Shown: positions 3,257-63,353, counted from the stretch's first letter. The stretch is DNA of 64,000 nucleotides from an uncultured bacterium (GCA_903861205.1 CAIOTC010000003.1:7964-71963), one strand, 5' to 3'. Translations and numbers: made by a program. The notes: generated by a model not told the origin, from the sequence alone.

Positions 3257-3297
3257 AAACTTCCAAATTTCACCAATCTCATCGTCTAAAATAATAT

Positions 3298-3348
3298 CCT
3301 GATCCGTCAATGTACCCACTGTACACCTCCGGCTCAGGATTTTATTTT
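3298..3348 (+). terminator. Candidate rho-independent terminator after rplE
   Basis: Inverted repeat cctgatccg...ccggctcagg followed by attttatttt. Confidence 0.4.
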
Positions 3349-3398
3349 ATACGCGACCTTGGCGAAATTATGAAAATTTTTAGTCCGTGGTGACTTAA

Positions 3399-3426
3399 AA
3401 AACCGCTAAACATGGCGGTTTTTGCG
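3399..3426 (+). terminator. Hairpin/terminator T2 (aaaaaccgctaaacatggcggttttt), copy 1
   Basis: Stem aaccgc/gcggtt plus T-run; a near-identical copy lies at 5078-5108. Confidence 0.5.
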
Positions 3427-3455
3427 TATAAGACTTTACTTTTGAACGATAGTTG

Positions 3456-3464
3456 TGGTATAAT
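3456..3464 (+). promoter_or_regulatory. Extended -10 promoter (TGgTATAAT) for gene 3506-4216
   Basis: Read directly: tgtggtataat ~40 nt upstream of the start. Confidence 0.4.
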
Positions 3465-3505
3465 ACATATAGATCCATACCTCGCTACAAACCATTAAAC
3501 CGGTT

Positions 3506-4216
3506 TTGGAAGACGAAGAGTATAGGATGTTGGAGTTTGAAATGCTCACAGATCCGTTGTTCAACGTTTTTGTCGGAGTCGTCGCCCTCGGCGCGTTCCT
3601 GGCTTCTCTCTGGATGATTCGAGAGGCTTACCGGACCTCTGTCCGCTATTACCGCGAATTTTTTGTTTGGCGCCCGGTACGACGCCGTGGAGAGGAGATG
3701 GTCCGTCGAGCCAAGTTTTATGTTCAAATTCATGGTCCGCTCGCGGTCCAAAACAAGGCCAAGAAAGGGGTCACGGCGGTTGCGCGTTACGACAAGTTCA
3801 ACGCGAGACTGCTTGAAGTTCTTCGCAGGGCCGCAGGCGCGCGTAATACGGAGCCGATGTGCCAACGGGTGTTTGTAGATGTGGTCCCCACATTCACATT
3901 CGCTGATAACGAAGCGGTTCATTTTCCAGCACACACAGGTCTGAAAAGAGACATTGACGATCTAATGAGCTGGATTGTCGCTAAAATAACGGATATCGGT
4001 AAGGCAGAGGTTGACAAGAGAAGCTATGAAGAGGCAGTTTTGATTCTCGCAGTTCGTGATCAGCGATTACTGATACCGTTTGAGTACGAAGAACCGTTGC
4101 ACACCGTTGAGGGCGAGTTCAAGAAGTTTGGTGGCACAACACTTCAGCAAGCGGAGGAGCAGTTTGTACCTCCTTTTCCCAACACTAGCACGTTTGACAC
4201 CTCCGCGGACGAATAG
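3506..4216 (+). CDS. Hypothetical protein with an N-terminal TM helix; GC-rich cargo gene inside the ribosomal operon
   Basis: 236 aa ORF; GC clearly above its surroundings; own promoter and terminator. Confidence 0.6.
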   Translation: MEDEEYRMLEFEMLTDPLFNVFVGVVALGAFLASLWMIREAYRTSVRYYREFFVWRPVRRRGEEMVRRAKFYVQIHGPLAVQNKAKKGVTAVARYDKFNARLLEVLRRAAGARNTEPMCQRVFVDVVPTFTFADNEAVHFPAHTGLKRDIDDLMSWIVAKITDIGKAEVDKRSYEEAVLILAVRDQRLLIPFEYEEPLHTVEGEFKKFGGTTLQQAEEQFVPPFPNTSTFDTSADE

Positions 4217-4222
4217 AGAACC

Positions 4223-4259
4223 AGCCGGTGGTCCCTCGCGGGGTCGCCGGCTTTTCATT
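4223..4259 (+). terminator. Rho-independent terminator T1 (agccggtggtccc-tcgc-ggggtcgccggct + T-run), copy 1
   Basis: 13-bp stem including G-U pairs, so strand-specific for +; identical copy at 5688-5726. Confidence 0.6.
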
Positions 4260-4352
4260 TGACTTTAGCTCACTTAAATATTAAGTTTATCCACACTTAC
4301 ACATTTCTAATCATTGAATTTTCATGGGTGTATGGGATAATTAAAACAACAA

Positions 4353-4847
4353 ATGGAGCAAAAACTCAATATAAATAAATATAAAAACGCTCTCGTGTAT
4401 TTGATAGATAAATGTGGAAATGAAAAATTGGGCATCATGAAGCTCAATAAAATTTTCTATTACATGGATTTTATTTCATATCGCGACCGCGGTTTGACTG
4501 TGACTGGCGAAACTTACGTTCATCTTCCAAAAGGACCATTTGCAGATTCTTTGCAAAGTGTGATTTTGCCTCTGGCGGAAAAAGAAAATCTGGTGGAACA
4601 AAAAGAGGATATCAGTGAAAAATTTGGCAAACGAAACAGATTTAAAGCTCTCAAAAAACCAGACATGTCGCTTTTTGATGACTACGAAAAGAAATTGCTG
4701 GAGTACTTGTGCGTGACATTCAAGGATTGGACAACAGATCAAATGGTTGCCCAAACTCACACAGAAGCGCCGTGGGTTTTTTCCAAACCGAGCAAATCTC
4801 TGGATTATAATAATGCTGATGATATAGAATTCTTTGCCAATAATTAA
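4353..4847 (+). CDS. Panacea-domain (DUF4065 / SocA-like antitoxin, phage-associated) protein
   Basis: N-terminal ...GIMKLNKIFYYMDFISYRDRG.TVTGETYVHLPKGPF pattern typical of DUF4065. Confidence 0.55.
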   Translation: MEQKLNINKYKNALVYLIDKCGNEKLGIMKLNKIFYYMDFISYRDRGLTVTGETYVHLPKGPFADSLQSVILPLAEKENLVEQKEDISEKFGKRNRFKALKKPDMSLFDDYEKKLLEYLCVTFKDWTTDQMVAQTHTEAPWVFSKPSKSLDYNNADDIEFFANN

Positions 4848-4859
4848 TTTATTTCCACT

Positions 4860-5081
4860 ATGTCTTGGTCTGTACAGAGAACGGAAAGTTTCGACAAGTG
4901 GTGGAAAAAAGAGGGAATAGAAGATAAAAACTATGAGTATCACGAGCGGGCGCTCACGGAATTTCAAAATATTCCGTTGCCTCATCAGATGCAGAGTTGC
5001 GTATTTAAGAATAGCAGTTTTGAATGCTGGGTTACTCGATTGCCTGACAAAGATCTCGCAAAAGAATTTATGGAAGCTTAA
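4860..5081 (+). CDS. Small hypothetical protein adjacent to the Panacea gene; possible toxin partner
   Basis: 73 aa ORF 12 nt downstream in the same transcription unit; no recognisable family. Confidence 0.35.
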   Translation: MSWSVQRTESFDKWWKKEGIEDKNYEYHERALTEFQNIPLPHQMQSCVFKNSSFECWVTRLPDKDLAKEFMEA

Positions 5082-5108
5082 AAACCGCTCAACATGGCGG
5101 TTTTTACG
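5078..5108 (+). terminator. Hairpin/terminator T2, copy 2 (aaaaaccgctcaacatggcggttttt)
   Basis: Near-identical to 3399-3426. Confidence 0.5.
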
Positions 5109-5116
5109 TGTTTTGA

Positions 5117-5145
5117 TTGACAAATAGATATAAAGGGAGTATAAT
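5117..5145 (+). promoter_or_regulatory. Consensus sigma70-type promoter TTGACA-17-TATAAT
   Basis: ttgaca(5117-5122), 17-nt spacer, tataat(5140-5145), ~80 nt upstream of ORF 5226. Confidence 0.55.
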
Positions 5146-5225
5146 ATAAGCGAAACATGAATTGGGGCATGTATGGACTCCAATCGCCGTCGGGCGTTAA
5201 ATAGATCATTGAAAGAGGTAGAGAA

Positions 5226-5657
5226 ATGATGGATTGTATTTTGGCAGTGATGATGGCGATTGTCGCTTTCATCACAGGTTGGATTCTGGCCGGCATAAAC
5301 ATCAGACGGCAGAAAAAGACAGACCGGGCGGAACATAGAATCGAAAATACCCAACGCAACATCGGCAACCGCGTTTGCAATGCCTTGAATGATGCGGCGG
5401 ACCAAAACCCAGAAGCTCACTTAAGAGCGAAGACCATCTTCTGTAATGGTGGTGAGGTCTACCGCGTCTACCTGTCTTTTGATTTTAGTGGTGCTGATCT
5501 TCTGCTGGTGGACATCGATCCTCGGCAGTCGGTACCCATCACGGTCTTTTTCAACAAAAGCAGGCTGGAAAAGTATTATGATATCACCGAAGGGGATCTT
5601 GTAAGACTCATCCAGATGCTTCAAGAGTTCGTGGTGAATTACTCGCCCGAACGCTAG
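5226..5657 (+). CDS. Hypothetical protein with an N-terminal TM helix; second GC-rich cargo gene
   Basis: 143 aa; hydrophobic N-terminus; perfect promoter upstream and T1 terminator downstream. Confidence 0.55.
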   Translation: MMDCILAVMMAIVAFITGWILAGINIRRQKKTDRAEHRIENTQRNIGNRVCNALNDAADQNPEAHLRAKTIFCNGGEVYRVYLSFDFSGADLLLVDIDPRQSVPITVFFNKSRLEKYYDITEGDLVRLIQMLQEFVVNYSPER

Positions 5658-5687
5658 AGCAACTGACTTACGCCAGCTCAGTTATTC

Positions 5688-5726
5688 AGCCGGTGGTCCC
5701 TCGCGGGGTCGCCGGCTTTTTTGTGG
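5688..5726 (+). terminator. Rho-independent terminator T1, copy 2
   Basis: Identical 30-nt hairpin to 4223-4252, followed by tttttt. Confidence 0.6.
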
Positions 5727-5758
5727 GTGAAAGTGGCACTAAACAAGAATAAATTCCA

Positions 5759-5994
5759 GAGGTTCGACCTTAATGCCCAATTTCCCAAGGTCGAACCTCG
5801 GATGCGGGTGCAAAGTCACCACTAAACAAAATCTCGTACTGACATCTTTTCGGCAACTCCGCAGTGTCGCGAGCCGGTCTTGTCAACGACCCAGCCTTCG
5901 GGGCTGGGCTCATTGACAAGTCGCGACCGAGGACGGTAACAAACTTTTCGCTGGAAAAGTTTGTGGTGACGAAAAGATGTCAGTACGAGATTTT
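5759..5994 (+). other. Highly structured ~240-nt element (nested long hairpins) at the right boundary of the insertion, upstream of the S14 gene
   Basis: 11-bp hairpin 5759-5769/5789-5799; 25-bp perfect stem 5828-5852/5970-5994 enclosing a 62-nt hairpin 5866-5927 (7+8+7 bp stems, ttcg loop). Confidence 0.5.
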
Positions 5995-6060
5995 GTGTTG
6001 ACTTTTCAAGTCACTTTTGGTAGTCTTACCACAGCTTGAAAAAGCTTCGTTTTTGTAAAT

Positions 6061-6246
6061 ATGGCTAAAACATCTGTAAAAGCACGAGCTCGCAAAACAC
6101 CGAAATTCTCAACTCGGGCTGTTAACCGATGTTTCCGATGCGGACGAAAGCACGCTTTCATGCGAGACTTCGGTCTTTGCAGAATCTGCTTCCGCGAGCT
6201 GGCCAATGAGGGGAAGATTCCGGGGGTTAAGAAATCAAGTTGGTAG
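6061..6246 (+). CDS. rpsN: 30S ribosomal protein S14 type Z (zinc-binding, 61 aa)
   Basis: [48 protein letters not shown]; four Cys. Confidence 0.9.
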
Positions 6247-6360
6247 ATACGAAATAACGAATAAATTACGAATGGCTACGAATAAGGAATACAAAGCATT
6301 TCATTCGTTGCAATTCGTAGACCCATTCGTTACTTCGTATATTAAACAAGTTCGTTCTAG
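6246..6360. repeat. Family-D 'tacgaat' palindromic intergenic element
   Basis: Related copies at 15486-15597, 15793-15904, 27480-27520, 44128-44172. Confidence 0.55.
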
Positions 6361-6418
6361 CAAGTCAGCGGTTAAAAACCAAAGATACTGCTAAAATATA
6401 ATACACACAACAAAAGAA

Positions 6419-6805
6419 ATGGATCCAATTTCAGACATGATTATCCGAATAAAAAACGCCTCAGATTCAAAGAAGGAGTCTGTGGTTTTTCCATATTCAA
6501 AAATGAAGCTCGCTATTCTCGACACTTTGATGAAAAGCGGTTTTGTGGTTTCGTTCGGCAAGAAAGGCAAAAAGGTGGTCAAATTCATCGAAGTTGTTTT
6601 GGCTTATGAAAACGGCGAACCGAAAATTCATGGCGTGCAGAGAATTTCCAAAACATCAAAGCGAGTTTATCAGAAAGCCAAGGACATCCGCTCGGTCAGA
6701 AATGGTTTCGGCGCTTTGATATTGTCAACACCGAAAGGAATCATTACGGACAAAATGGCCAGAACGGATAAGGTTGGAGGGGAAGCACTCTTTAAAATTT
6801 GGTAA
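6419..6805 (+). CDS. rpsH: 30S ribosomal protein S8
   Basis: MDPISDMIIRIKNA... 128 aa. Confidence 0.95.
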   Translation: MDPISDMIIRIKNASDSKKESVVFPYSKMKLAILDTLMKSGFVVSFGKKGKKVVKFIEVVLAYENGEPKIHGVQRISKTSKRVYQKAKDIRSVRNGFGALILSTPKGIITDKMARTDKVGGEALFKIW

Positions 6806-7456: not shown

Positions 7457-7497
7457 AATAGAGGTTGGAGAGAAGAGACTAGAGATTAGAAAATACA

Positions 7498-7848
7498 ATG
7501 CAAAATTCAAAATCCAAAACAGAACAGAGAATACGACGCAAGGCGCGAATACGAGCCAAGATTTCGGGCACCAAGGAAATGCCACGACTTTCCGTTTTCA
7601 AATCAAACAGATACATTTCTGCTCAGATTATCGATGACGGATCTTCTGTTACGCTTGCTTCTTCACATTCCAAAACAGCAAAAGGCAAAACGCTTTTGGA
7701 GAAATCAGTTGGCGTGGGAAGCGACATTGCAGCCCAAGCCAAAGCCAAGAAAATTACCAAGGTAGTTTTCGATCGCGGAGGATTCAGATACACGGGGGCG
7801 GTCAAGGCAGTCGCAGAGGGAGCAAGGGAAGGAGGATTAATTTTTTGA
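7498..7848 (+). CDS. rplR: 50S ribosomal protein L18
   Basis: RIRRKARIRAKISGT...PRLSVFKSNRYISAQIIDD. Confidence 0.9.
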   Translation: MQNSKSKTEQRIRRKARIRAKISGTKEMPRLSVFKSNRYISAQIIDDGSSVTLASSHSKTAKGKTLLEKSVGVGSDIAAQAKAKKITKVVFDRGGFRYTGAVKAVAEGAREGGLIF

Positions 7849-7969
7849 TTACAAAAAATAATTTCTAATTTTTAATTTAAAATTTTTAATGAATGTCTAA
7901 ATTTAAAAATTGAATCAATTAAAATTCATTAAAAATTCAAAAATTAAAAATTAAAAATTTTTACAAACA

Positions 7970-8551
7970 ATGGAACCAGAAATACAAAAAGAAATAACAA
8001 CAGAAGCTCCGAAAGTGGACGCCAGTCGTCCTATGGATTTTCGTGGTGGGGAAAGAGGGGGATTTAGAAAAAATACTCGCAAGGGTCCACCTCGTCGCGA
8101 AGCTCGAGTCAAGCCGGAATTCGACCAGAAAATCATTAGCATTCGCCGAGTGACTCGCGTGGTTACCGGAGGACGACGATTCAGCTTTTCCGTCGGTATT
8201 GTTATCGGTGACAGAAAGGGACGCGTTGGTGTCGGCCAAGGCAAAGCGGGGGATACTCCTATCGCCATCGACAAAGCTGTGCGAAACGCCAGAAAAAATA
8301 TGATTACGGTCAAAATGACCAAGAACGGTTCCATTCCGCATGACGTGGAGGCAAAATACTCGGCATCGAGAGTGCATATCATGCGCGCTCCTGGCAAGGG
8401 AATTTTGGCCGGCTCAAGCGTTCGAACAGTTTTGGAATTTGCAGGACTGAAAGAAGTTAGCGCCAAAATATTTTCACGAAGCAAAAATAAAGTGAACAAC
8501 GCACAAGTGGCGATCAAGGCGCTGGGGATGCTGAAAACAGGAAACAAATAA
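7970..8551 (+). CDS. rpsE: 30S ribosomal protein S5
   Basis: RRVTRVVTGGRRFSFSVGIVIGDRKGRVGVGQGKA S5 signature. Confidence 0.95.
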   Translation: MEPEIQKEITTEAPKVDASRPMDFRGGERGGFRKNTRKGPPRREARVKPEFDQKIISIRRVTRVVTGGRRFSFSVGIVIGDRKGRVGVGQGKAGDTPIAIDKAVRNARKNMITVKMTKNGSIPHDVEAKYSASRVHIMRAPGKGILAGSSVRTVLEFAGLKEVSAKIFSRSKNKVNNAQVAIKALGMLKTGNK

Positions 8552-8659
8552 TTTAAAATTTATAATTTAGAATTTAAAATGAATTTAAAATTTCAAAATT
8601 GAATCAATGAAAATTCATTAAAAATTAAAAATTTTAAATTAAAAATTTCTTAAACTATC

Positions 8660-9094
8660 ATGCAACTGAACAATTTAAAAAGATTACATAAGAACAAAAA
8701 GACTCGGCAAATCGGCCGGGCTGGTCAGCGTGGAAAAACATCTGGACGCGGTACGAAAGGTCAGAACGCTCGCGCCGGACACAAAAAGCGACCGGAAATT
8801 CGCGATTTTATAAAGCGTTTGCCAAAAATGCGCGGACGAGGCAAAAATCTGAACACGAGTATAGAGACAAAACCGACGGTCATAAACTTGCGAGATCTTT
8901 CCGTTTTCAAAGCGGGCGAGGTTGTTTCTCCGGAGACGCTTGCTACAAAAAAAATAATTACAAAACTGGATGCCAGCCGTGGCGTCAAAATCCTTTCTGT
9001 CGGAGCAGTGACCGCCAAACTGACTATTTCAAAATGCTCTCTTTCGGCAGGAGCCAGAAAAGCGGTAGTGGATGCGGGAGGGGAAGTGAAGTAA
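8660..9094 (+). CDS. rplO: 50S ribosomal protein L15 (no L30 gene precedes it)
   Basis: MQLNNLKRLHKNKKTRQIGRAGQRGKTSGRGTKGQ. Confidence 0.9.
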   Translation: MQLNNLKRLHKNKKTRQIGRAGQRGKTSGRGTKGQNARAGHKKRPEIRDFIKRLPKMRGRGKNLNTSIETKPTVINLRDLSVFKAGEVVSPETLATKKIITKLDASRGVKILSVGAVTAKLTISKCSLSAGARKAVVDAGGEVK

Positions 9095-19030: not shown

Positions 19031-19033
19031 AAA

Positions 19034-19422
19034 TGTGGAAGTGCCGACATTGAAGTCGGATGCAAAGAAAGAATTGAAATGGGTCTACAACGCTTAGTTT
19101 GTTTCAGGTTTTAGATCTTGCAGCTATAAAACAAACAAAACACTGCAAAATCGAGTCTCTATTTTTTAGAAAATTTTATGAGACAATAAAATTTTCGAAT
19201 CCGAATTTATTAGAACTACGTATCCCTATCGGATGTTGGGAAGGTAATCCTTTCTTACGCTCTCGCGTAGGAAAAAGCGAAATTGTTTGCCGTAAAATAC
19301 GGAGAAACAGTTGCTCGTTTAGTTAAGTTGTTTACACTTAGCTTTCCGGACTGTTTTAGAAGGATCCGGTACTTCGCGTCGCGCATGACAATGTGCAATC
19401 TATGTCAAAACCTGTCACCCCC
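19034..19422 (-). ncRNA. ssrA: tmRNA (SsrA), ~387 nt; proposed tag ANNFAFSYARA
   Basis: - strand 5' GGGGGUGACAGGUUUUGACAUAG...; 3' T-arm CCGACUUCAAUGUCGG; acceptor CACUUCC pairs with GGGGGUG including G3:U70; resume GCA at 19290, stop UAA at 19257-19255; immediately downstream of smpB. Confidence 0.7.
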
Positions 19423-38570: not shown

Positions 38571-39059
38571 ATGAAAAAATCTGTCAGCGGTTTTACCCTC
38601 ATCGAGTTACTTGTTGTCATTGCGATCATCTCGCTCATCTCCTCTGTCATTTTGGCAGCTCTTAATTCGGCAAGAACTAAAGGTATAGATTCTTTAATAA
38701 AAGCAAACCTAAATACCATCATCAAACAAACCGAAATAGTTTTTGACGCAAATAATGGTAGTTATCTTAGTCCAAATTCTATTTGTTATAACACAACAAT
38801 TAGAAATGCCATGCAATCCAGTTCTCAGGCGTCTGCCGGGTATGATCTTATAACGAATGATTATAAAAGAGATTTTAATTGTGGAAATTTTGGTAAGTAT
38901 TGGGCAGTGGTAATAAAAATGAAAGGTTTAAACGGTTGCCCCGCTGCTTCATGGATATGCGCTGATAATAGCGTTGATCCTGCCGCTCCCGCCAAAGTCC
39001 CAGGAACTTACGAGATCATATGTAATCAACCCGGAGTGAGTATTTCCGTATGCCCATAG
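38571..39059 (+). CDS. Type IV pilin (class III signal GFTLIELLVVIAII)
   Basis: Prepilin leader plus hydrophobic N-helix; C-terminal Cys pair. Confidence 0.8.
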   Translation: MKKSVSGFTLIELLVVIAIISLISSVILAALNSARTKGIDSLIKANLNTIIKQTEIVFDANNGSYLSPNSICYNTTIRNAMQSSSQASAGYDLITNDYKRDFNCGNFGKYWAVVIKMKGLNGCPAASWICADNSVDPAAPAKVPGTYEIICNQPGVSISVCP

Positions 39060-39203
39060 AATTATCCACAGTGCCCCTTTTCACCGCTTGCATATAACCG
39101 TATAATAGATGTACTAGTTTAATAGATGAATTCTCTGAAAAAGAGGCGGTCGAGCTAGAAAATTTATTTACAAGAATTTATTAATAAAATTATCAATTAA
39201 TAT

Positions 39204-39695
39204 ATGAAATATATGAAAAGAGGTTTTACGCTTATTGAATTGCTCGTGGTTATCGCCATCATCGGTATTCTTTCATCAGTTGTTTTGGCTAGTTTGAACA
39301 CTGCTCGAAACAAGGGTGCTGATGCCGCTATCAAGTCAAACTTGGCAAATGCTCGCGCACAAGCAGAGATTTTCTATGATACTAACGGTCAGACTTACGA
39401 TGCTGGTACAGCTGCCACTGATGTTTGTAACACAGCAGCATCAGTCGGTAACCCGGCTGTAAAAGGTGTATTTGCAAATGTTCAGGCTGCAGCTACAACC
39501 GCAGGGGCGGGTACTGCGCTTACAGACACGGCAGAAACAACAACAAACGCAGTGTGTAATAGTTCTGCTACTGGATGGGCCGCAGCAGTTCCCCTAAAGG
39601 GAGGTGGACAGTGGTGTGTTGACAGCACAGGAAAGTCAGTACCGGAGGTAGCTGCAAACCTGTTGGCACCAGCTGCAACAGTGGCTTGCCCATAG
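39204..39695 (+). CDS. pilA: Type IV major pilin-like (PilA paralog 1)
   Basis: MKYMKRGFTLIELLVVIAIIGILSSVVLASLNTARNKGADAAIKSNLANARAQAEIFYD; C-terminal WCVDSTG...C. Confidence 0.8.
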   Translation: MKYMKRGFTLIELLVVIAIIGILSSVVLASLNTARNKGADAAIKSNLANARAQAEIFYDTNGQTYDAGTAATDVCNTAASVGNPAVKGVFANVQAAATTAGAGTALTDTAETTTNAVCNSSATGWAAAVPLKGGGQWCVDSTGKSVPEVAANLLAPAATVACP

Positions 39696-39725
39696 TACTT
39701 GATTATGTTTTAGTTTTAGATTCAG

Positions 39726-39752
39726 AAAAACCGGCCTTGGCCGGTTTTTCGT
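39726..39752 (+). terminator. Rho-independent terminator (aaaaaccggccttggccggttttt)
   Basis: Perfect 8-bp stem plus T-run. Confidence 0.55.
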
Positions 39753-39850
39753 TTATTTGAGTTATCAACACCTCACGTTTGTATTGTCTTTTTATGTTGT
39801 ATAATATATCCATAACTTTATAAGTTTTAAATTATTAGTTTATTAAACAT

Positions 39851-40339
39851 ATGAATAAGACAAATCGAGGTTTTACGCTTATTGAATTACTCGTGGTTAT
39901 CGCCATCATCGCACTTCTGTCGTCGGTTGTTCTGGCATCACTTAACTCAGCCAGGAATAAGGGTGCTGATGCAGCTATCAAATCAAACTTGGCAAATGCT
40001 CGCGCACAAGCGGAGATTTTCTATGATGCAAATGGAAGTTCTTATATGGGTACTATTAACACAGCTACCGATGTATGTAACACAGCCGCTTCAGTTAATG
40101 GAGTAAAGGGTATTTATCCAAATGTTCTTGCGGCGATACAAGTAAGTCAGGGTTCTGGTGGTGCTCTAGTCGCTGAAAATGCGGTAGAAACTGGCACAAC
40201 TGCCTCGTGCAACCCCGCTTCAGGTACTTGGGTCGCTCAGGCCCCTTTAAAAAGTGCGGGTTTTTGGTGTGTTGACAGTACGGGCGCTTCTGTTCCTGAA
40301 GCAGCTGTATTACCTATCAACGCGACCAAGTGTCAGTAA
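39851..40339 (+). CDS. Type IV pilin (PilA paralog 2)
   Basis: N-terminal ~60 aa near-identical to 39204 gene. Confidence 0.8.
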   Translation: MNKTNRGFTLIELLVVIAIIALLSSVVLASLNSARNKGADAAIKSNLANARAQAEIFYDANGSSYMGTINTATDVCNTAASVNGVKGIYPNVLAAIQVSQGSGGALVAENAVETGTTASCNPASGTWVAQAPLKSAGFWCVDSTGASVPEAAVLPINATKCQ

Positions 40340-40492
40340 AATACTTGGATAGTTTTAAAAACCGCTCTCCTCAAGGGGGTGGTTTTTGTATGTAAAGTTA
40401 TCAACAAGCTCTAATTTTGTTTATTTTTTTAAGTTGTATAATGAAATCACAAGGTCCAAATTGTCACTTAATTCTTATTAGGTTTTAATTTT

Positions 40493-40918
40493 ATGAAAAA
40501 CATTAAAAGAGGTTTTACGCTTATTGAATTACTCGTGGTTATCGCCATTATCGGTATTCTTTCCGCGGTTGTTTTAGCGAGTTTAAATACAGCTCGAGAT
40601 AAAGGTGCTGACGCAGCTATAAAAGGAGATTTGGATGGTATCCGTGCTCAAGCGCAAATAGTTTACGAGGATAATTCAAATGATTATACCAATGTTTGTA
40701 TAGATCAGACTGTTATTGCTGCTGTAACTGGCGCACTTACAGCCGGAACAGATCTAGGGGCATTAGCTGACAGATGCCACTCCGACACCGACCATTGGAA
40801 CGCTTGGGCCACGCTCAAAACCGACACTGCCCAAATGTGGTGCGTGGACAACACCGGCACATCGCGCCAAGGCCCCGTCGCCTCCGCCCCCACCGACCCC
40901 CTCACCCCTTGCCCATAA
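40493..40918 (+). CDS. Type IV pilin (PilA paralog 3)
   Basis: Same leader and N-helix; WCVDNTG motif. Confidence 0.8.
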   Translation: MKNIKRGFTLIELLVVIAIIGILSAVVLASLNTARDKGADAAIKGDLDGIRAQAQIVYEDNSNDYTNVCIDQTVIAAVTGALTAGTDLGALADRCHSDTDHWNAWATLKTDTAQMWCVDNTGTSRQGPVASAPTDPLTPCP

Positions 40919-58156: not shown

Positions 58157-58305
58157 AAATACCGCTATGTTAAGCGGTATCCCTACTCTTCACTTTTTTG
58201 GTTTATTTTTTTTACTATTTCAATTCTGGAAAAATTTTTGAAATATTGTTGTATTAAGCCACAGAAAAAATCCAGAATTCAAAAACACTGGATTTTTTGA
58301 CTTTA

Positions 58306-58986
58306 TTAAATAATCATTTTGTAACCTATTCCTCTAACACTCTCAATTATTTCTGGAAATTCTGTGTAGCCAGTTGCCATTTTCAATTTTTCCTTCACTT
58401 CGTTCACAGCAGATTGCACAGCAGTTATCTGCCTTTTTGTTACTCCCTCTCTTTGATTTGGTCGTCCTTGTCCAAAGTCTCTCACATTTCTTATAGCTTC
58501 GTATAGTTCTTCGAAAGAAGTATCCTTTCCAAATTTCCTTTTCAAACACCGAAACACTGCGAGTTCATTTCCCCTGAAAGAAATTTCAGTAGGCAATCCT
58601 AAGTAAGTCAAAACTGTACTACCTTCATGATTTTGTTCTTCACCAAACAAGCATGACGATTCGTCAAAAGTTTTTTCAAAATACATTTTAAGTAGTTCCG
58701 TAGTGTATCCAGATATTTCAACATGTCCATTTTCAGATAGTGTCCATGAGGGTTCTGGGTTTGTTTCCGGTCTTATTTTTAGTACAACACCTTTTATTTC
58801 TGTCAGCATATGTATAACAAGCCATTGTGGTGTTTTTCTTGCAGTGTCAAAGTCAGTAGGGGAATTTGTTATAAGTGCAGGATCAAAATCAATAGATGTG
58901 TGAAATCCGTCGACTTCATGTACTCTCATTTCGATTAATTGTCGTGTGAACCATTTTAGCTGCTCACTAAAAATTTCAGTTACCAT
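58306..58986 (-). CDS. Putative regulator with a C-terminal OmpR/PhoB-type winged-helix (..ESVRGIGYKMI)
   Basis: C-terminal motif resembles the trans_reg_C terminus; N-domain unknown. Confidence 0.4.
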   Translation of the reverse strand: MVTEIFSEQLKWFTRQLIEMRVHEVDGFHTSIDFDPALITNSPTDFDTARKTPQWLVIHMLTEIKGVVLKIRPETNPEPSWTLSENGHVEISGYTTELLKMYFEKTFDESSCLFGEEQNHEGSTVLTYLGLPTEISFRGNELAVFRCLKRKFGKDTSFEELYEAIRNVRDFGQGRPNQREGVTKRQITAVQSAVNEVKEKLKMATGYTEFPEIIESVRGIGYKMII

Positions 58987-59013
58987 ATGAGGTTATTATA
59001 AAACAAACTTAAC

Positions 59014-59292
59014 TCAAATCATCATTGTGGCCATTAATAATAATATAGAAAGTAGAGGTGATACTAATAATATCAAAAAAATGGACGGGGTTTGTTTGCC
59101 ATTTTTTATAAAAATAGTTACTGAGTGAACGAAACTTGAAACTAGCACAACAACATAAACAAAAATAGTAAATGTCAAAATATTTCCAGAATCTCCAAAC
59201 ATAGTTAAAAATGTATGTATTAATGCAAAAGGTAGAATAAATTCTAAAACCAACAATACAATAGCAAGATTGTTGTCACTTCGTTTGATCAT
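59014..59292 (-). CDS. Small membrane protein (3 TM), holin-like by size only
   Basis: 92 aa, strongly hydrophobic. Confidence 0.35.
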   Translation of the reverse strand: MIKRSDNNLAIVLLVLEFILPFALIHTFLTMFGDSGNILTFTIFVYVVVLVSSFVHSVTIFIKNGKQTPSIFLILLVSPLLSILLLMATMMI

Positions 59293-59446
59293 AATTTGTT
59301 ATTTTTTTAAAGTTAAAGTTCGGATTTTTAATAACTCAATTATACAGCAGTTAACATCTTTTTTGTAATCCACAGTCGTATAACAGGTTTACACCCAAAT
59401 GAACTCATTGTGATATAATATATTTATTAAAAATTTCTAAAATAAT

Positions 59447-60607
59447 ATGGAACAAAACTATCAAAATGGTGAATCTCCTTTGCAACCCTTACAAACCACT
59501 CAACAAAACGATTTTTCAAATCAAACTTCACCACAATCTGATATTAAAATTCCAACGCACCCTACTGGTAAAAAGTACAGTAAATTTTTTGTAGTTATTC
59601 TAGCAGTTTTGTTGGTTGTAACCATAATAACTGCGGGAATTTTTGCTATGCAAAATAAAACTGTAAGTGAAAAATCTGTGACAAACATTTCTGACTGTCA
59701 AAAAACATCAGATGCAGGATCTTGTATTTTATCGTTTGCATTAAAACAAGCTGATCCATCAATATGCGGTGAATATTTTGTTGGTGAGAAAAAGGATATG
59801 TGTTTATCACAGGTTTCTGTTTTAAAAAAGGATTTGGCTACATGTCAGTTAGTTGACACATTACAATATAGACAGATTTGCTATCAACAAATTACTGGAA
59901 AAAATTTGACTGCCACTACATCTGTAACTCAAAATCCAAGTGATTGCACAAGCCTTACCAATCCAGCTGAACAATATTATTGTGTTGCAAAACAAGCTGA
60001 ATCAAAAAATAATCCAGCTCTATGCGACACAGTAACAACACAAAACTTTAAAGACAGATGTTACATGCAGGTTGCGGAAGATACAAAAAATTCACAATTA
60101 TGTGCCAAAGTTAGAACACCTGATAATAAAGATATTTGCTATAACGCCTTAGCCCAATTAACTAACGATTCTAAGTTATGTAATCAAATAAAAAATAATA
60201 CTGGAATGAAAGAAGGCTGTTTACAAATTTTTGAATTGAAGAAACCACAAGTTCCTTCGCTTGCTGTAACTATGGATTTGTCTATGGCAACTTTAACGGG
60301 TAAGGCGGGACAAACTGTTGATGTAACAGGAACTATAGAAAATTATTCTGGACAAACCGTATACCTTAATACCATGGGTGGATCATTAGGTTCGCCTGAT
60401 ATGGAATTGGACACTGCATACTTCTTTCAAGTTGTTCCTCGTATTTTCAAACAAGGGGATATATATAAAGGTACATTATTTTCAGTAAGTATTGGCAGTA
60501 ATGTTCAGCCTGGTAACTATCGGGTTAGTTTCTATTTCATGGGGGGAAAGGATATTTCTGGTTTTGATCAGTTAACAAAACAAAATCTCTCAATAACAGT
60601 ACAATAA
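59447..60607 (+). CDS. Membrane-anchored Cys-rich repeat surface protein with a C-terminal beta-rich domain
   Basis: N-terminus MEQNYQNGESPLQPLQTTQQNDF..., TM, ~8 Cys-pair repeats (C...D..CY). Confidence 0.5.
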   Translation: MEQNYQNGESPLQPLQTTQQNDFSNQTSPQSDIKIPTHPTGKKYSKFFVVILAVLLVVTIITAGIFAMQNKTVSEKSVTNISDCQKTSDAGSCILSFALKQADPSICGEYFVGEKKDMCLSQVSVLKKDLATCQLVDTLQYRQICYQQITGKNLTATTSVTQNPSDCTSLTNPAEQYYCVAKQAESKNNPALCDTVTTQNFKDRCYMQVAEDTKNSQLCAKVRTPDNKDICYNALAQLTNDSKLCNQIKNNTGMKEGCLQIFELKKPQVPSLAVTMDLSMATLTGKAGQTVDVTGTIENYSGQTVYLNTMGGSLGSPDMELDTAYFFQVVPRIFKQGDIYKGTLFSVSIGSNVQPGNYRVSFYFMGGKDISGFDQLTKQNLSITVQ

Positions 60608-60658
60608 ACAACTGTGATAAATAATACAATATTATCTTTAATTTAAAGTAAAAATACC

Positions 60659-62125
60659 ATGGAACCAAATAATACAAATAGCGAGTTTCCTTCACAACCT
60701 TTACAAACTACACCTCAGCCAGATTTTTTAAACCAAACTCAACCTTCTAAAAAATTATCAACAATATTTTTGTTGTTTATTATCATAATGGTTGTTGTGC
60801 TTGGTGGTGCTAGTGTTTTTGCATATCAAATATATCAAAAAAATAAAATTATTCCTGCTGTTCCTGTTAAAAATACAGTTGTTAATAATGTAGCGATTGC
60901 TTCAACAACTGGCATAACAATAAAATACATTGATGTTAAAGGTAAAATTTTAGAAGCTAAAAATGGACATTACTTATCTGGTGAAAATATTTACTCTTCA
61001 AATATAAATTTATTTTATGATGGAAATCCTATTTTGAATAAAACAATACTTGGTAAAGATAGTTATTTTGACAGTCAATCATTAAGTAGTAACGGTATGC
61101 ATTATGCTTTTGTTATGGCACATTATCCACATTATCCTATGATGCCACTGACAAATACCCACGATTTGTATATTGATGGCAAGAAAATAAAAGCTTTGCA
61201 TAGTCCTATAATTCCACTTGTTTCTGATACTGGTGAATTTGTAGAGGCAAACCTCAAGACTGCAAAGCAGTCTACTTTCCCATATTCTATGTCTAGTCCA
61301 AATGGACAACATAATGCGGATATAAAAAATGGGAATCTATTTATAGATGGTAAACCAATGTTATCGAGTACAACCACTATTATTAATATTAATCAATTGC
61401 AGATCACCGATTCTGGACATTATTTGCTATTTTTCTCTTACATTTACACATCAGACAAATACGGTAAAACATCTAAAACATCAGTTTATATTGATGGAAA
61501 AGAATATTCCTCAACAGGTTTCGTCTATGGCTACATAAATAATGATGCAACCCATCATCTTTTCTATAGTTCTAATAATGTGTGGGCATTGGATGACAAA
61601 CCTATAGATTTCCAAGGTGTTGCAATTCCTTATAATAAAATTAGTGACGCTCCTTTTGGAACAAGTCTAGTGGAAATGATAGACAATACAATTTATGTTT
61701 ACAAAGCAGATAAGACATACAATGTAGTTGATAAAATTCCTGAAATGCCTGCCAATACCGTTAATAGCTTAGATCAAAACATCAGTGTTATTCTGGATAA
61801 GGTTGATGGCATTGGAAGCAGAAATACAGCAATTCAGTTCAAAGGAAAAGTTGTAAATAATTCTGACTGGAAAGAAATTTATCTCAATGGTGCTGGTGGA
61901 AACACATCTAGTGGGGAACTAACCATGGACAACTCTCAGTTTTTTGTGTTGCCCCCAAAACTTGATCCTGGTCAAGTTATAACAGGGGAACTTTTTTCAA
62001 TTGCAGTTTCTCAAGTTGCTTTACCTGGTGACTATTCTGCAACTATGACTATTCAAGGTGGTACAAATCAAACGACCTATGACACGATGACTACTTCAGA
62101 TGTAACAATTAATATAAAACCATAG
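60659..62125 (+). CDS. Paralogous membrane-anchored surface protein (same cytoplasmic N-terminus and C-terminal domain, different ectodomain)
   Basis: MEPNNTNSEFPSQPLQTTPQPDF... parallels the 59447 gene; C-terminal ...GELFSIAVSQVALPGDYSATMTIQGG resembles ...GTLFSVSIGSNVQPGNYRVSFYFMGG. Confidence 0.5.
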   Translation: MEPNNTNSEFPSQPLQTTPQPDFLNQTQPSKKLSTIFLLFIIIMVVVLGGASVFAYQIYQKNKIIPAVPVKNTVVNNVAIASTTGITIKYIDVKGKILEAKNGHYLSGENIYSSNINLFYDGNPILNKTILGKDSYFDSQSLSSNGMHYAFVMAHYPHYPMMPLTNTHDLYIDGKKIKALHSPIIPLVSDTGEFVEANLKTAKQSTFPYSMSSPNGQHNADIKNGNLFIDGKPMLSSTTTIININQLQITDSGHYLLFFSYIYTSDKYGKTSKTSVYIDGKEYSSTGFVYGYINNDATHHLFYSSNNVWALDDKPIDFQGVAIPYNKISDAPFGTSLVEMIDNTIYVYKADKTYNVVDKIPEMPANTVNSLDQNISVILDKVDGIGSRNTAIQFKGKVVNNSDWKEIYLNGAGGNTSSGELTMDNSQFFVLPPKLDPGQVITGELFSIAVSQVALPGDYSATMTIQGGTNQTTYDTMTTSDVTINIKP

Positions 62126-62140
62126 TCATAAAATAAAAAT

Positions 62141-62398
62141 ATGTACAATTTTTTTGTTAATTTAGTAAAAGAGTTTTTTGCTCACCCATTCATTCTGATT
62201 TTATTTGTTCTTTTGATAGTAGGTATGTTTCTGTACACAAAGAATAAAAAACAAAAAACTAGTACCACCGTACGAGAATCATTAACAATGGTTGCCATAG
62301 GAGTATTGGTGTTTGTAGTCATTATTATATTGTTTATAAATTTTATTGGCGGAAGTTTTGAATGTAATGGTGGTAGTGGTTTTATATTTGCGTGTTAA
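62141..62398 (+). CDS. Small membrane protein
   Basis: 85 aa, 2 TM. Confidence 0.3.
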   Translation: MYNFFVNLVKEFFAHPFILILFVLLIVGMFLYTKNKKQKTSTTVRESLTMVAIGVLVFVVIIILFINFIGGSFECNGGSGFIFAC

Positions 62399-62409
62399 AC
62401 TTAAAAATA

Positions 62410-62717
62410 TGAAAAAAATTATCTTTTTCTTGGTGGGTTTGTTTTTACCAGTTGCTATTGAGGTGTATTTTTATTTTAATTTTCTTTCACCGAGTGTTTC
62501 TTCTATAGCATCACCACTAGTATTTACTTTTCTCGGAGTTCCACTAGCCGTTTTGTTTGTAGTACCCATTATTGTCGGTGCAATCATTATGAATTTATAC
62601 GGTTTTGCAAATAAACCAGTCGTTTATAGTTATTGGATTGGTGTAATTTTAGGAATATTATCCGTATATTTTGTATCTATACCAAATTTTATTTCTTTTC
62701 TGAAAATATACTTTTAA
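62410..62717 (+). CDS. Small membrane protein
   Basis: Start MKKIIFFLVGLFLPVAI; 3 TM. Confidence 0.35.
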
Positions 62718-62723
62718 TTATCC

Positions 62724-63269
62724 ATGACTAGTATTCAACAAAAAATAGTAGATGAAATTCTGGACGAATACAAAAACAAGGAACACATAATCGGTGTCCG
62801 TGTTTTTGGAAGTGTTGCTGTGGGTAAAGAAAGAAGTAATTCAGATGTTGATATCACCATCATTTTTGATGACGATAGAGAATGGGAATTATTCAAAGAA
62901 AATAAATATGGAATCGCTGTTGATTTTGAGATTGTTACAAAAAATATTTGGGAGATGATGTTGAAAGAGTATCCATATCTTTTTTACATAGAAAATAGCA
63001 AGATTGTTTTGGATAAGACAGGATTTGTAAAAGATGCGTTAAACAAAAGTAAAAAATATTTTGACGACAATCCTGAGGTTTATGATTTTTGGAAAAAGAA
63101 CTATGATCTGATGAGGGAATTAAAAGCGTCTGGAGAAAAACCTAAAAATTATATTGTAATTTGTGATGAAGCGGAAACCAGATTTTCAGATTATCACTCT
63201 GTTAAAAGGGACATCTTGACACCAGAATTTTTTCATAAACATACAAAAAAAATCAACCTAATGAATTGA
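62724..63269 (+). CDS. Minimal nucleotidyltransferase (Pol-beta superfamily; MNT/KNTase-like)
   Basis: GSVAVGKERSNSDVDITII = GS-x9-13-DxD NTase motif; 181 aa with a helical C-terminus. Confidence 0.6.
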   Translation: MTSIQQKIVDEILDEYKNKEHIIGVRVFGSVAVGKERSNSDVDITIIFDDDREWELFKENKYGIAVDFEIVTKNIWEMMLKEYPYLFYIENSKIVLDKTGFVKDALNKSKKYFDDNPEVYDFWKKNYDLMRELKASGEKPKNYIVICDEAETRFSDYHSVKRDILTPEFFHKHTKKINLMN

Positions 63270-63353
63270 TAGGGAGTTTGGAAGAGCTTCCATTTGTAAA
63301 TAAAGAAAAAAGGGCTGGCGGAATAATCACGCACAGCCCATTGAAATTCTTTT

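Follow-up and report, generated by a model that had tools for sequence, protein, structure and literature searches.

The DNA analysed here (the window) is a stretch of 64,000 nucleotides from an uncultured bacterium (GCA_903861205.1, CAIOTC010000003.1:7964-71963), whose host lineage is Zambryskibacteria-like and belongs to the Paceibacteria, within the candidate phyla radiation (CPR). The S10-spc cluster of ribosomal-protein genes lies at the start of the window. It runs in the order rpsC, rplP, rpmC, rpsQ, rplN, rplX and rplE, and continues after a gap with rpsZ, rpsH, rplF, rplR, rpsE, rplO and an open reading frame (ORF) of the size of SecY. The gap, which we call the slot, is the subject of this paper. 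It separates rplE (L5; 2723-3256, + strand; PF00281 and PF00673) from rpsZ (zinc-type S14; 6061-6246, +; PF00253, E=2.3e-24) by 2,804 nt, in agreement with the figure of about 2.8 kb in an initial annotation of this DNA, which read the gap as one foreign, self-insulated cassette inserted within a ribosomal operon. The same order is found in independent public assemblies (L087, L088 and L002; L numbers are our labels), so the arrangement is not an assembly artefact or a chimera.

The features listed in that annotation (two hairpins called T1 and T2, each in two copies, two promoters, a Panacea-domain gene, two ORFs encoding a transmembrane (TM) helix, and a block of hairpins next to rpsZ) are all present where it had placed them. 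Its general description also holds, in that the DNA appears to be modular and accessory, with a predicted promoter and terminator for each unit. Our reading of the whole is different: the 2.8 kb is probably the content of a lineage-specific accessory-gene slot, and not one inserted system. From rplE to rpsZ it would consist of six units, namely a long-hairpin element, the TM1 cassette, the PanA-toxin pair with its T2 hairpin, the TM2 cassette, a 73-nt insert, and a structured RNA gene of 171 nt.

The boundary between rplE and rpsZ

Relatives were collected by a scan for RplE using one genome per GTDB species, which gave 80 loci from Zambryskibacteria, Paceibacteria and Parcubacteria. Both genes are present in 66 GTDB species. 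The gap between them is at most 302 nt in 38 of these and at least 400 nt in the other 28. All 18 close relatives with a gap of 70-200 nt have a promoter of the form TTGAC(T/A)-17-TAG(G/T)AT before rpsZ, and it is kept in occupied slots too; the rpsZ promoter of the window is TTGACT-17-TAGTCT (5998-6026, +). In all 18 a small AGCTT/AAGCT hairpin lies 3' of this promoter, and in three of them (L025, L029, L030) a clear terminator hairpin follows rplE. The junction of rplE and rpsZ thus appears to be a conserved break in this lineage, with a predicted terminator on one side and a predicted promoter on the other, and the slot would not lie inside an operon as had been proposed. Given that the cluster is normally split here, an insertion at this point need not disturb expression of the ribosomal genes.

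The AGCTT-loop-AAGCT hairpin of the window is located at 6034-6048, between the rpsZ promoter and the start codon, and is found clade-wide in rpsZ 5' untranslated regions (5'UTRs). In L001 and L084 the rpsZ 5'UTR has an additional hairpin with AAGCGAG / TCCGAGCG motifs. The rpsZ 5'UTR hairpins may be an autoregulatory site for a ribosomal protein.

Occupancy was mapped on a neighbour-joining tree of eight concatenated ribosomal proteins. The slot is occupied in 19 of the 23 members of the window's subclade, compared to 4 of the 35 outside it, and is empty in the other four members and in all of the nearest sister groups. Occupied slots of the subclade hold 0.4-2.5 kb of variable genes, and their contents are dissimilar even among near neighbours in the tree. 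Apart from the TM1 and TM2 proteins and their relatives (families A and B), the cassette proteins are mostly singletons, as judged by BLAST and iterative hidden Markov models (HMMs). An N-terminal hydrophobic (TM) helix opens 20 of the 37 slot ORFs on the + strand. Other slot genes encode HicA/HicB (L061), AbiEii (L094), a response-regulator receiver (L022) and a protein with multiple helix-turn-helix motifs (L010). The layout recurs across species, and consists of a terminator, a strong promoter, a leader of about 80 nt, the gene, a GC-rich hairpin and the rpsZ promoter. We found no literature that links Zambryskibacteria to insertions in ribosomal operons.

Some individual loci deserve mention. 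The AbiEii toxin gene of L094 lies in the rplE-rpsZ slot at 5763-6443 of that locus, and the slot of L061 holds pilin-like genes as well as the HicA/HicB pair (7483-7998 and 8366-8761). Three more distant relatives (L065, L076 and L083) have rplE-rpsZ gaps of 4.7-5.8 kb containing large genes, which may represent a rearranged cluster rather than a cassette slot.

The cassettes and their framing repeats

T2a (3398-3423, +), which follows the rplE unit, is a hairpin composed of an A-tract, a stem and a T-tract. Its second copy, T2b (5080-5105, +), is the predicted terminator of the PanA unit, and the two are 93% identical. T1a (4222-4255, +) has a 13-bp stem with nine GC pairs followed by a T run, and T1b (5687-5720, +) is 100% identical to it over the 34 nt, though the two flank unrelated genes. 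T1 and T2 each occur twice in the 64 kb, compared to 0 expected. Both T1 copies and T2b passed the terminator scan, and T2a is the same sequence. With a GC-rich stem-loop, a T run and a position just 3' of a stop codon, T1 and T2 have the features of intrinsic (Rho-independent) terminators, and are predicted to act as such.

When T1 and T2 were sought in relatives, they were found to be conserved at 86-96% in L094, L095 and L105. A hairpin of the T2a type stands directly after rplE in L094 and L095, and a terminator occupies this position in relatives with empty slots as well. T1-like hairpins lie 3' of cassette genes in L001, L084, L094, L095 and L105. In L105 there is a counterpart of T2b at the same position after the toxin gene, and a TTGACA...TATAAT promoter at the position of the TM2 promoter, where it would drive a different gene. 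The duplicated T1 of the window has an independent parallel in L036 (7140-7235 and 7635-7700), where the same hairpin of about 34 nt (accagtgtgcccccgaggggagcccactggtttt) stands after each of two tandem TM genes.

The TM1 cassette has a predicted promoter with an extended -10 element (TTTACT-18-TGgTATAAT; 3435-3464, +), of which there are equivalents upstream of TM1 homologs in relatives. This is followed by leader A, a 5'UTR conserved with family A genes (3465-3541, +), and by TM1 itself (3542-4216, +), a family A protein of 224 amino acids (aa) with an N-terminal TM helix and then an Arg-rich segment. The ORF had been given as 3506-4216; it is present and TM-anchored as described, while its start is likely to be the ATG at 3542 rather than 3506, and the public protein P0001 also has 224 aa. 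The same long irregular hairpin is the minimum free energy fold of leader A in 8 of 8 species (z -1.5 to -6.6), and ends just 5' of the ribosome-binding site; in L032, L038 and L085 the outer-stem sequence is divergent despite the same fold. The agreement is one of single-sequence folds only, since RNAalifold gave no consensus on a MAFFT alignment. Leader A has no match in Rfam.

A word-indexed search of 5.8 billion proteins found no more than two relatives when TM1 alone was the query, and seven when a profile was used. Exhaustive searching with HMMER gave 161 cluster representatives (50% identity) at E<=1e-3, and 127 at E<=1e-10; family A comprises at least 161 clusters. Its members have about 185-230 aa, match over their full length, and share the motifs PTFTF, HTG, RLxVPF and (F/Y)G..L..A. 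Closer homologs for which the context is available are located after rplE or before rpsZ/rpsH (L001, L008, L032, L038, L084, L085, L086 and L162). TM1 is 50% identical to its homolog in L001, compared to 85% for RplE, and 27-43% identical to those of other relatives, compared to 73-82%. Matches of family A in sequence searches of PDB and Pfam were discarded as TM-helix noise.

The TM2 cassette begins with a perfect consensus promoter (TTGACA-17-TATAAT; 5117-5145, +). Leader B, a 5'UTR conserved with family B genes (5146-5225, +), shares 84-92% identity with those of L035, L094 and L095. It has two small hairpins and a 7-bp stem with two compensated pairs; its fold energies are indistinguishable from those of shuffled sequences, and it has no credible match in Rfam. 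TM2 (5226-5657, +) is a family B protein of 143 aa; RRQKK comes directly after its N-terminal TM helix. Members of family B are found in L004, L031, L033, L040 and L080 and as proteins P0011-P0013 at 63-75% identity; L035 is probably a further member. Homologs of TM2 occupy the same site in L094-L100 as well as in L004, L031, L033, L040 and L080, and all family B members with context are located after rplE.

The two TM proteins match no described family, as had been stated; for TM1, nothing was found in Pfam, NCBIfam, PADLOC, PHROGs or PDB sequences. The idea that they are diverged duplicates was rejected, given an hhalign probability of 4% and iterative HMMs that never join families A and B. 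TM1 and TM2 thus represent two unrelated, uncharacterised families, undescribed in the libraries searched. TM1 has a short acidic N-terminal tail and an Arg-rich segment after the helix, and by the positive-inside rule would be oriented N-out/C-in; both proteins are predicted to be single-pass, membrane-anchored cytoplasmic proteins of this topology. As a tentative suggestion, they may act at the inner membrane face in an accessory role related to conflict or to the envelope: they are patchily distributed, unrelated genes can take their place, and toxin-antitoxin (TA) and abortive infection (Abi) genes keep them company.

A clade-specific housekeeping function linked to translation or export, for example as ribosome tethers or Sec partners co-regulated in the ribosomal cluster, is the main alternative. 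The location within the S10-spc-secY cluster, the strong promoters and conserved leaders, and the predicted topology, which puts the domain at the inner membrane face, are all compatible with it, and at the nucleotide level the cytoplasmic domain of TM2 is conserved like the ribosomal genes. Nevertheless we think it quite unlikely. The genes are patchily distributed, with the slot empty in four subclade members and in sister clades; they are replaceable by unrelated genes including TA modules; distant family A members occur in non-ribosomal contexts; and neither protein has above-threshold similarity to YajC, SecE/G, LapA or ribosome-associated families.

Between the two TM cassettes lies the PanA unit. 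Its promoter region (4259-4341, +) has TTGACT at 4259 and TTGAAT-16-TGgGATAAT at 4314-4341. PanA (4353-4847, +) is a Panacea-domain antitoxin (SocA_Panacea, PF13274, E=4.2e-15; 57.1 bits compared to a cut-off of 25.7), and is followed at a spacing of 12 nt by a co-oriented ORF of 73 aa (4860-5081, +). The same pair is found directly after rplE in L105, where PanA is 87% identical. The window from 4310 aligns to DNA upstream of the L105 PanA, in an 80% alignment that spans 4310-5050, and TTGACTTT lies ahead of PanA in L105 as well. The partner in L105 has 126 aa. The 73-aa ORF is 80% identical to its residues 1-64 and then jumps to the conserved C-terminal LA.EF.EA, without residues 65-117, which include KGKSGGFRVI; it is what remains of a putative RelE/Gp49-like toxin after an in-frame deletion that removed about 53 internal codons. 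The L105 toxin matches RelE (PF06296) at 23.7 bits, below the cut-off of 27 (E=5.9e-5), and this sub-threshold signal, the only RelE signal, sits in the KGKSGGFRVI stretch that is missing from the window ORF. The 73-aa remnant matched none of the profiles. PADLOC gave no match for TM1, TM2 or the 73-aa ORF, and a weak DarG-region match for PanA (E=0.0012).

From these alignments, the PanA pair can be described as a type II TA module in decay: the antitoxin is intact, and the toxin lacks its core. The partner is short of about 53 codons, among them the sole RelE-like stretch, so the pair has probably ceased to work as an addiction module. The initial annotation was right about the kind of pair, and missed that the partner is a deletion derivative of the 126-aa toxin. 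In PanA systems the antitoxin gene more commonly precedes that of the toxin, and many PanT toxins are small TM proteins (Kurata et al. 2022, PMC8832971). With PanA-PanT systems the window pair shares a Panacea domain above the Pfam cut-off, the gene order with a 12-nt gap, and preservation of the pair in L105; it differs in lacking an intact toxin (73 aa, compared to 126 aa in L105), and so looks like a degenerate member of a known family. TM1 and TM2 were considered as toxins neutralised by PanA and rejected, because they are found without PanA in relatives and because the conserved partner of PanA is the RelE-like gene.

The markedly higher GC content that had been attributed to the TM genes is not borne out. 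The GC fraction is 0.512 for TM1 and 0.481 for TM2, compared to 0.436 +/- 0.060 for the 62 longer genes of the window, while rplP has 0.516; PanA, at 0.364, is rather low. TM1 and TM2 are within the spread of window genes, and a GC anomaly was accordingly dismissed as a sign of foreign origin. A run of genes at 58300-63300 of the window has GC 0.30-0.36 and GC3 0.21-0.28, well below the window mean, and is a stronger compositional outlier than any slot gene.

Nucleotide identity to relatives is 76-77% for TM2 and 81% for PanA, compared to 71-81% for rplN, rplE, rpsZ and rpsH. The cassettes are thus as diverged as the flanking ribosomal genes, which does not indicate a recent transfer and suggests that the units have been in the lineage for about as long as the flanks have diverged. 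The claim of foreign acquisition is weakened in part by this result, given that relatives carry the same genes at this position with the same identity as the flanks. None of 50,697 phage records matches TM1 or TM2, family B was not found in IMG/VR, and the best viral match of PanA is 26%, to an archaeal virus. All ORFs of at least 40 aa on both strands between rplE and rpsZ were listed; four were taken as genes, and the remainder overlap those genes or the RNA. There is no integrase or transposase among the slot ORFs, and no recombinase domain in the four slot genes. A prophage or integrative element was rejected as an identification, given that there are no mobility genes in the slot and no phage relatives.

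The structured RNA gene and other hairpin elements

The hairpin block (5759-5996) does consist of nested inverted repeats, as had been described. Comparison of homologous sequences indicates that it is a free-standing conserved RNA gene and not part of a cassette. The gene (5826-5996, +) is 171 nt long. Besides a closing stem of about 30 bp, it has a long bulged stem, which is conserved, and a hairpin with a CGCNGG loop; the junction (CCGCAGG / CGAGGAC) is conserved as well. A pattern made from the conserved helix found 61 metagenome loci, and 0 in IMG/VR. The RNA occurs in about 50 other genomes in unrelated contexts. From their translations, its neighbours elsewhere are presumably GreA, RecA, GyrA, RF2 and ribosomal proteins, and no neighbour family is present in more than three loci. 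A covariance model finds a single copy in the 64 kb; among relatives it places the RNA in the slot in L035 and L095 only (the copy in L105 comes from the pattern scan), with the RNA or weaker matches outside the slot in the others.

RNAalifold was applied to 50 distinct sequences, and gave 49 pairs, 36 of them with compensatory changes. The proportion of cells that are paired is 92%, compared to 73% in shuffles, and the covariation score is 0.518, compared to 0.179 in shuffles (reached by 0 of 500) and at most 0.144 in slid-partner controls. The closing stem is wholly species-variable in sequence yet always paired, while the junction and central helix are nearly invariant. The strand is taken as +, the direction of rplE, because G-U pairs are common and A-C rare. 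Rfam has no match at the gathering score, nor at E<=10 on 5700-6070; matches to the RNA, the leaders and the post-rplE hairpin were of a spurious microRNA type only, and were set aside. By these measures the 171-nt RNA is unclassified, strongly supported by covariation, and widespread in Paceibacteria.

It could be argued that the block is instead a mobile DNA element, similar to a miniature inverted-repeat transposable element (MITE), or a transcriptional insulator, with no RNA gene at all. It has terminal inverted repeats 30 nt long, its genomic location differs among species, and it adjoins a small insert with a 10-nt direct repeat. However, a terminal stem that is fully divergent but always paired, around a conserved interior, is the opposite of a MITE. 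The compensatory changes exceed all controls clearly, G-U pairs are tolerated on one strand only, and there is one copy in 64 kb. We regard this explanation as extremely improbable.

The closest likeness of the RNA gene is to 6S RNA (ssrS, RF00013). The two are alike in size (about 170-185 nt) and share an extended closing stem, an unpaired junction and a long internal helix. Both are encoded by free-standing genes whose housekeeping contexts vary, and a single copy is present in the DNA examined. The window RNA differs in having no Rfam match, a three-way junction and highly conserved helix sequences, and a 6S-like identity is a lead only. We found no paper that connects 6S RNA with CPR/Patescibacteria beyond a passing mention. 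Signal recognition particle (SRP) RNA was ruled out by eye only, on the lack of a conserved GNRA loop or domain IV motifs.

The species-specific insert mentioned above (5747-5819, 73 nt) contains a perfect 13-bp hairpin at 5759-5799, and is bracketed by a 10-nt direct repeat, CACTAAACAA, at 5737-5746 and 5820-5829. It is found only in contigs of the same species, and not at the homologous positions in L095 and L105. The insert sits in the apparent upstream region of the RNA gene.

At the other end of the slot, immediately after rplE, is the long-hairpin element (3257-3385, strand not assigned), which is about 125 nt long and belongs to a dispersed Paceibacteria family. Homologs that are 70-79% identical are scattered over many loci at unrelated positions, and L011 has two of them within 12 kb. 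RNAalifold gave 36 pairs, 21 with compensatory changes; the ends and bulges are conserved and the central stem covaries. There is no credible match in Rfam. The element could be a small RNA, or a REP/MITE-like element. Inverted copies lie between the rpsZ promoter and start codon in L017 (7491-7528) and L047 (5895-6016), and likewise in the rpsZ 5'UTRs of L026 and L031, so the slot attracts this element on either side.

Proposed turnover of the slot and comparison with known systems

The units of the slot occur separately in relatives. L001 and L084 have TM1 only, L095 has TM2 and the RNA, and L105 has the PanA-toxin pair, another gene and the RNA. The array of L095 (rplE-T2-promoter-leader B-TM2-T1-RNA-rpsZ) is the expected product of a deletion between T2a and T2b, and that of L001 and L084 (rplE-terminator-promoter-leader A-TM1-T1-rpsZ) is what a deletion between T1a and T1b would give, the RNA excepted. 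L105 keeps PanA-toxin-T2-promoter and T1-RNA, with a non-TM gene of 149 aa between them, and in L094 an AbiEii gene comes after T1, with a short uncalled stretch before it. T1 and T2 thus frame exchangeable units. Homologous recombination at the repeats and at the ribosomal flanks would explain the loss of cassettes, and possibly their gain.

The separation of the units decides against the initial proposal, in which the 2.8 kb as a whole was acquired horizontally as a single self-insulated system for defence or addiction, with cooperation of the TM proteins, PanA pair and hairpins. Such a proposal was reasonable, given a Panacea antitoxin, PanT toxins that are often small TM proteins (PMC8832971), recurrent TA and Abi genes in the slots of relatives, and repeats that bracket the modules. 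It is now largely refuted by the presence of TM1 or TM2 without PanA in L001, L084, L094 and L095, and of PanA without either in L105. Moreover, the partner of PanA is the RelE-like gene immediately downstream and not a TM protein, the RNA gene that makes up the hairpin block is present in about 50 genomes in unrelated contexts, and the slot has no GC anomaly, a divergence equal to that of its flanks, no integrase or transposase and no phage relatives. A single cooperating system is therefore very improbable.

In the accessory-slot reading, the rplE|rpsZ break of one subclade has become a site where small, independently expressed units would accumulate and turn over. Transcription of rplE would end at T2a, a terminator-like hairpin, each cassette would have its own transcription and termination, and transcription would restart at the clade-conserved promoter of the rpsZ unit. 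With rplE ending at T2a and rpsZ having its own promoter, the ribosomal genes would be insulated from the cassettes. Recombination between the T2-promoter and T1 repeats, and between the conserved ribosomal flanks, would add or remove cassettes.

A purely vertical history is the alternative to exchange, with a full ancestral array followed only by deletion at T1 and T2 and fast divergence. It accounts for the nucleotide identity of the cassettes, which matches that of the flanks, for the TM1 identity, which roughly tracks that of RplE, and for the relatives that fit the predicted deletion products. It is harder to reconcile with at least 10 mutually unrelated cassette families in the slot, at up to three cassettes per genome, for which a single ancestor would need a very long array. 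In addition, tree neighbours have unrelated genes (L013 compared to L022, and L009 compared to L017), and the same T2-promoter and T1 repeats enclose another gene in L105. A history without exchange between lineages is thus unlikely.

Several points weigh against the accessory-slot reading. Differential loss from a fuller ancestral array, without exchange, could explain most of the pattern, and the gain of cassettes by recombination is deduced from patterns. The few contigs of the same species all have the full array, and neither a polymorphic population nor a recombination junction was seen. The points at which transcription would start and stop come from consensus matches only. Fold searches with TM1 and TM2 gave nothing significant, with models of moderate or low confidence. 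Two distant members of family A are found outside the ribosomal cluster, so the family is not tied to the slot, and the slot of L009 has a lipoprotein-like cassette, so that not every cassette product faces the cytoplasm.

A more ambitious version can be formulated, in which the break is a dedicated expression site where genes for membrane-anchored effectors, each with a regulatory leader specific to its family, are swapped by homologous recombination between a fixed T2-promoter and a fixed T1, as an integrase-free functional analogue of an integron. TM1 and TM2 would be new single-gene conflict effectors, in anti-phage defence or host interaction, and the 171-nt RNA an undescribed global regulator of the 6S kind in this lineage. 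This is speculative, and rather unlikely as a whole.

Elsewhere in the window, four tandem co-oriented ORFs of 141-163 aa with gaps of about 150 nt (38571-40918) resemble a paralogous array. There is a tmRNA gene at 19033-19422 (-; 74 bits in Rfam), and there are five tRNA genes, including one tRNA-Ile with the anticodon TAT.

The S10-spc cluster serves as the most stable marker set for placing uncultured bacteria. That the middle of the cluster can be a site of accessory turnover is a caveat for binning and for annotation based on synteny. The slot also offers a natural experiment in the placement of flexible genes by tiny genomes. The reading as a new multi-gene defence system falls away, and three kinds of concrete objects are left for study: an unclassified RNA, two uncharacterised families of membrane-anchored proteins, and a dispersed long-hairpin element.

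Accessory-gene hotspots or islets between core genes, including small defence islands, are a known phenomenon. The slot resembles them in having a fixed interval between core genes, differing and mostly unknown genes, recurrent TA and Abi genes, and no mobility gene. It differs in its location within the S10-spc ribosomal cluster, in its single-gene units with strong promoters, family-specific leaders and shared terminators, and in that over half of the units encode N-terminally anchored small proteins.

Integron arrays are similar in having tandem single-gene units that each end in a hairpin-forming repeat, so that the unit varies and the repeat stays. The slot differs in that there is no integrase gene (the screen was limited to the slot) and the cassettes have their own promoters; its hairpins resemble intrinsic terminators, without the R/L box layout of attC, and exchange, if any, would be by homologous recombination. 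An identification as an integron was rejected, since the slot has no IntI, T1 is a GC stem with a T run, and the cassettes have consensus promoters.

A further parallel is with split S10/spc operons that have internal promoters, where a terminator and then a promoter likewise divide the cluster into transcription units. Here the break is at rplE|rpsZ, and serves one subclade as a landing site for accessory genes. It is concluded that the slot is a variant of the known accessory hotspots, which is unusual in its location in the ribosomal cluster and in its regular cassette layout.

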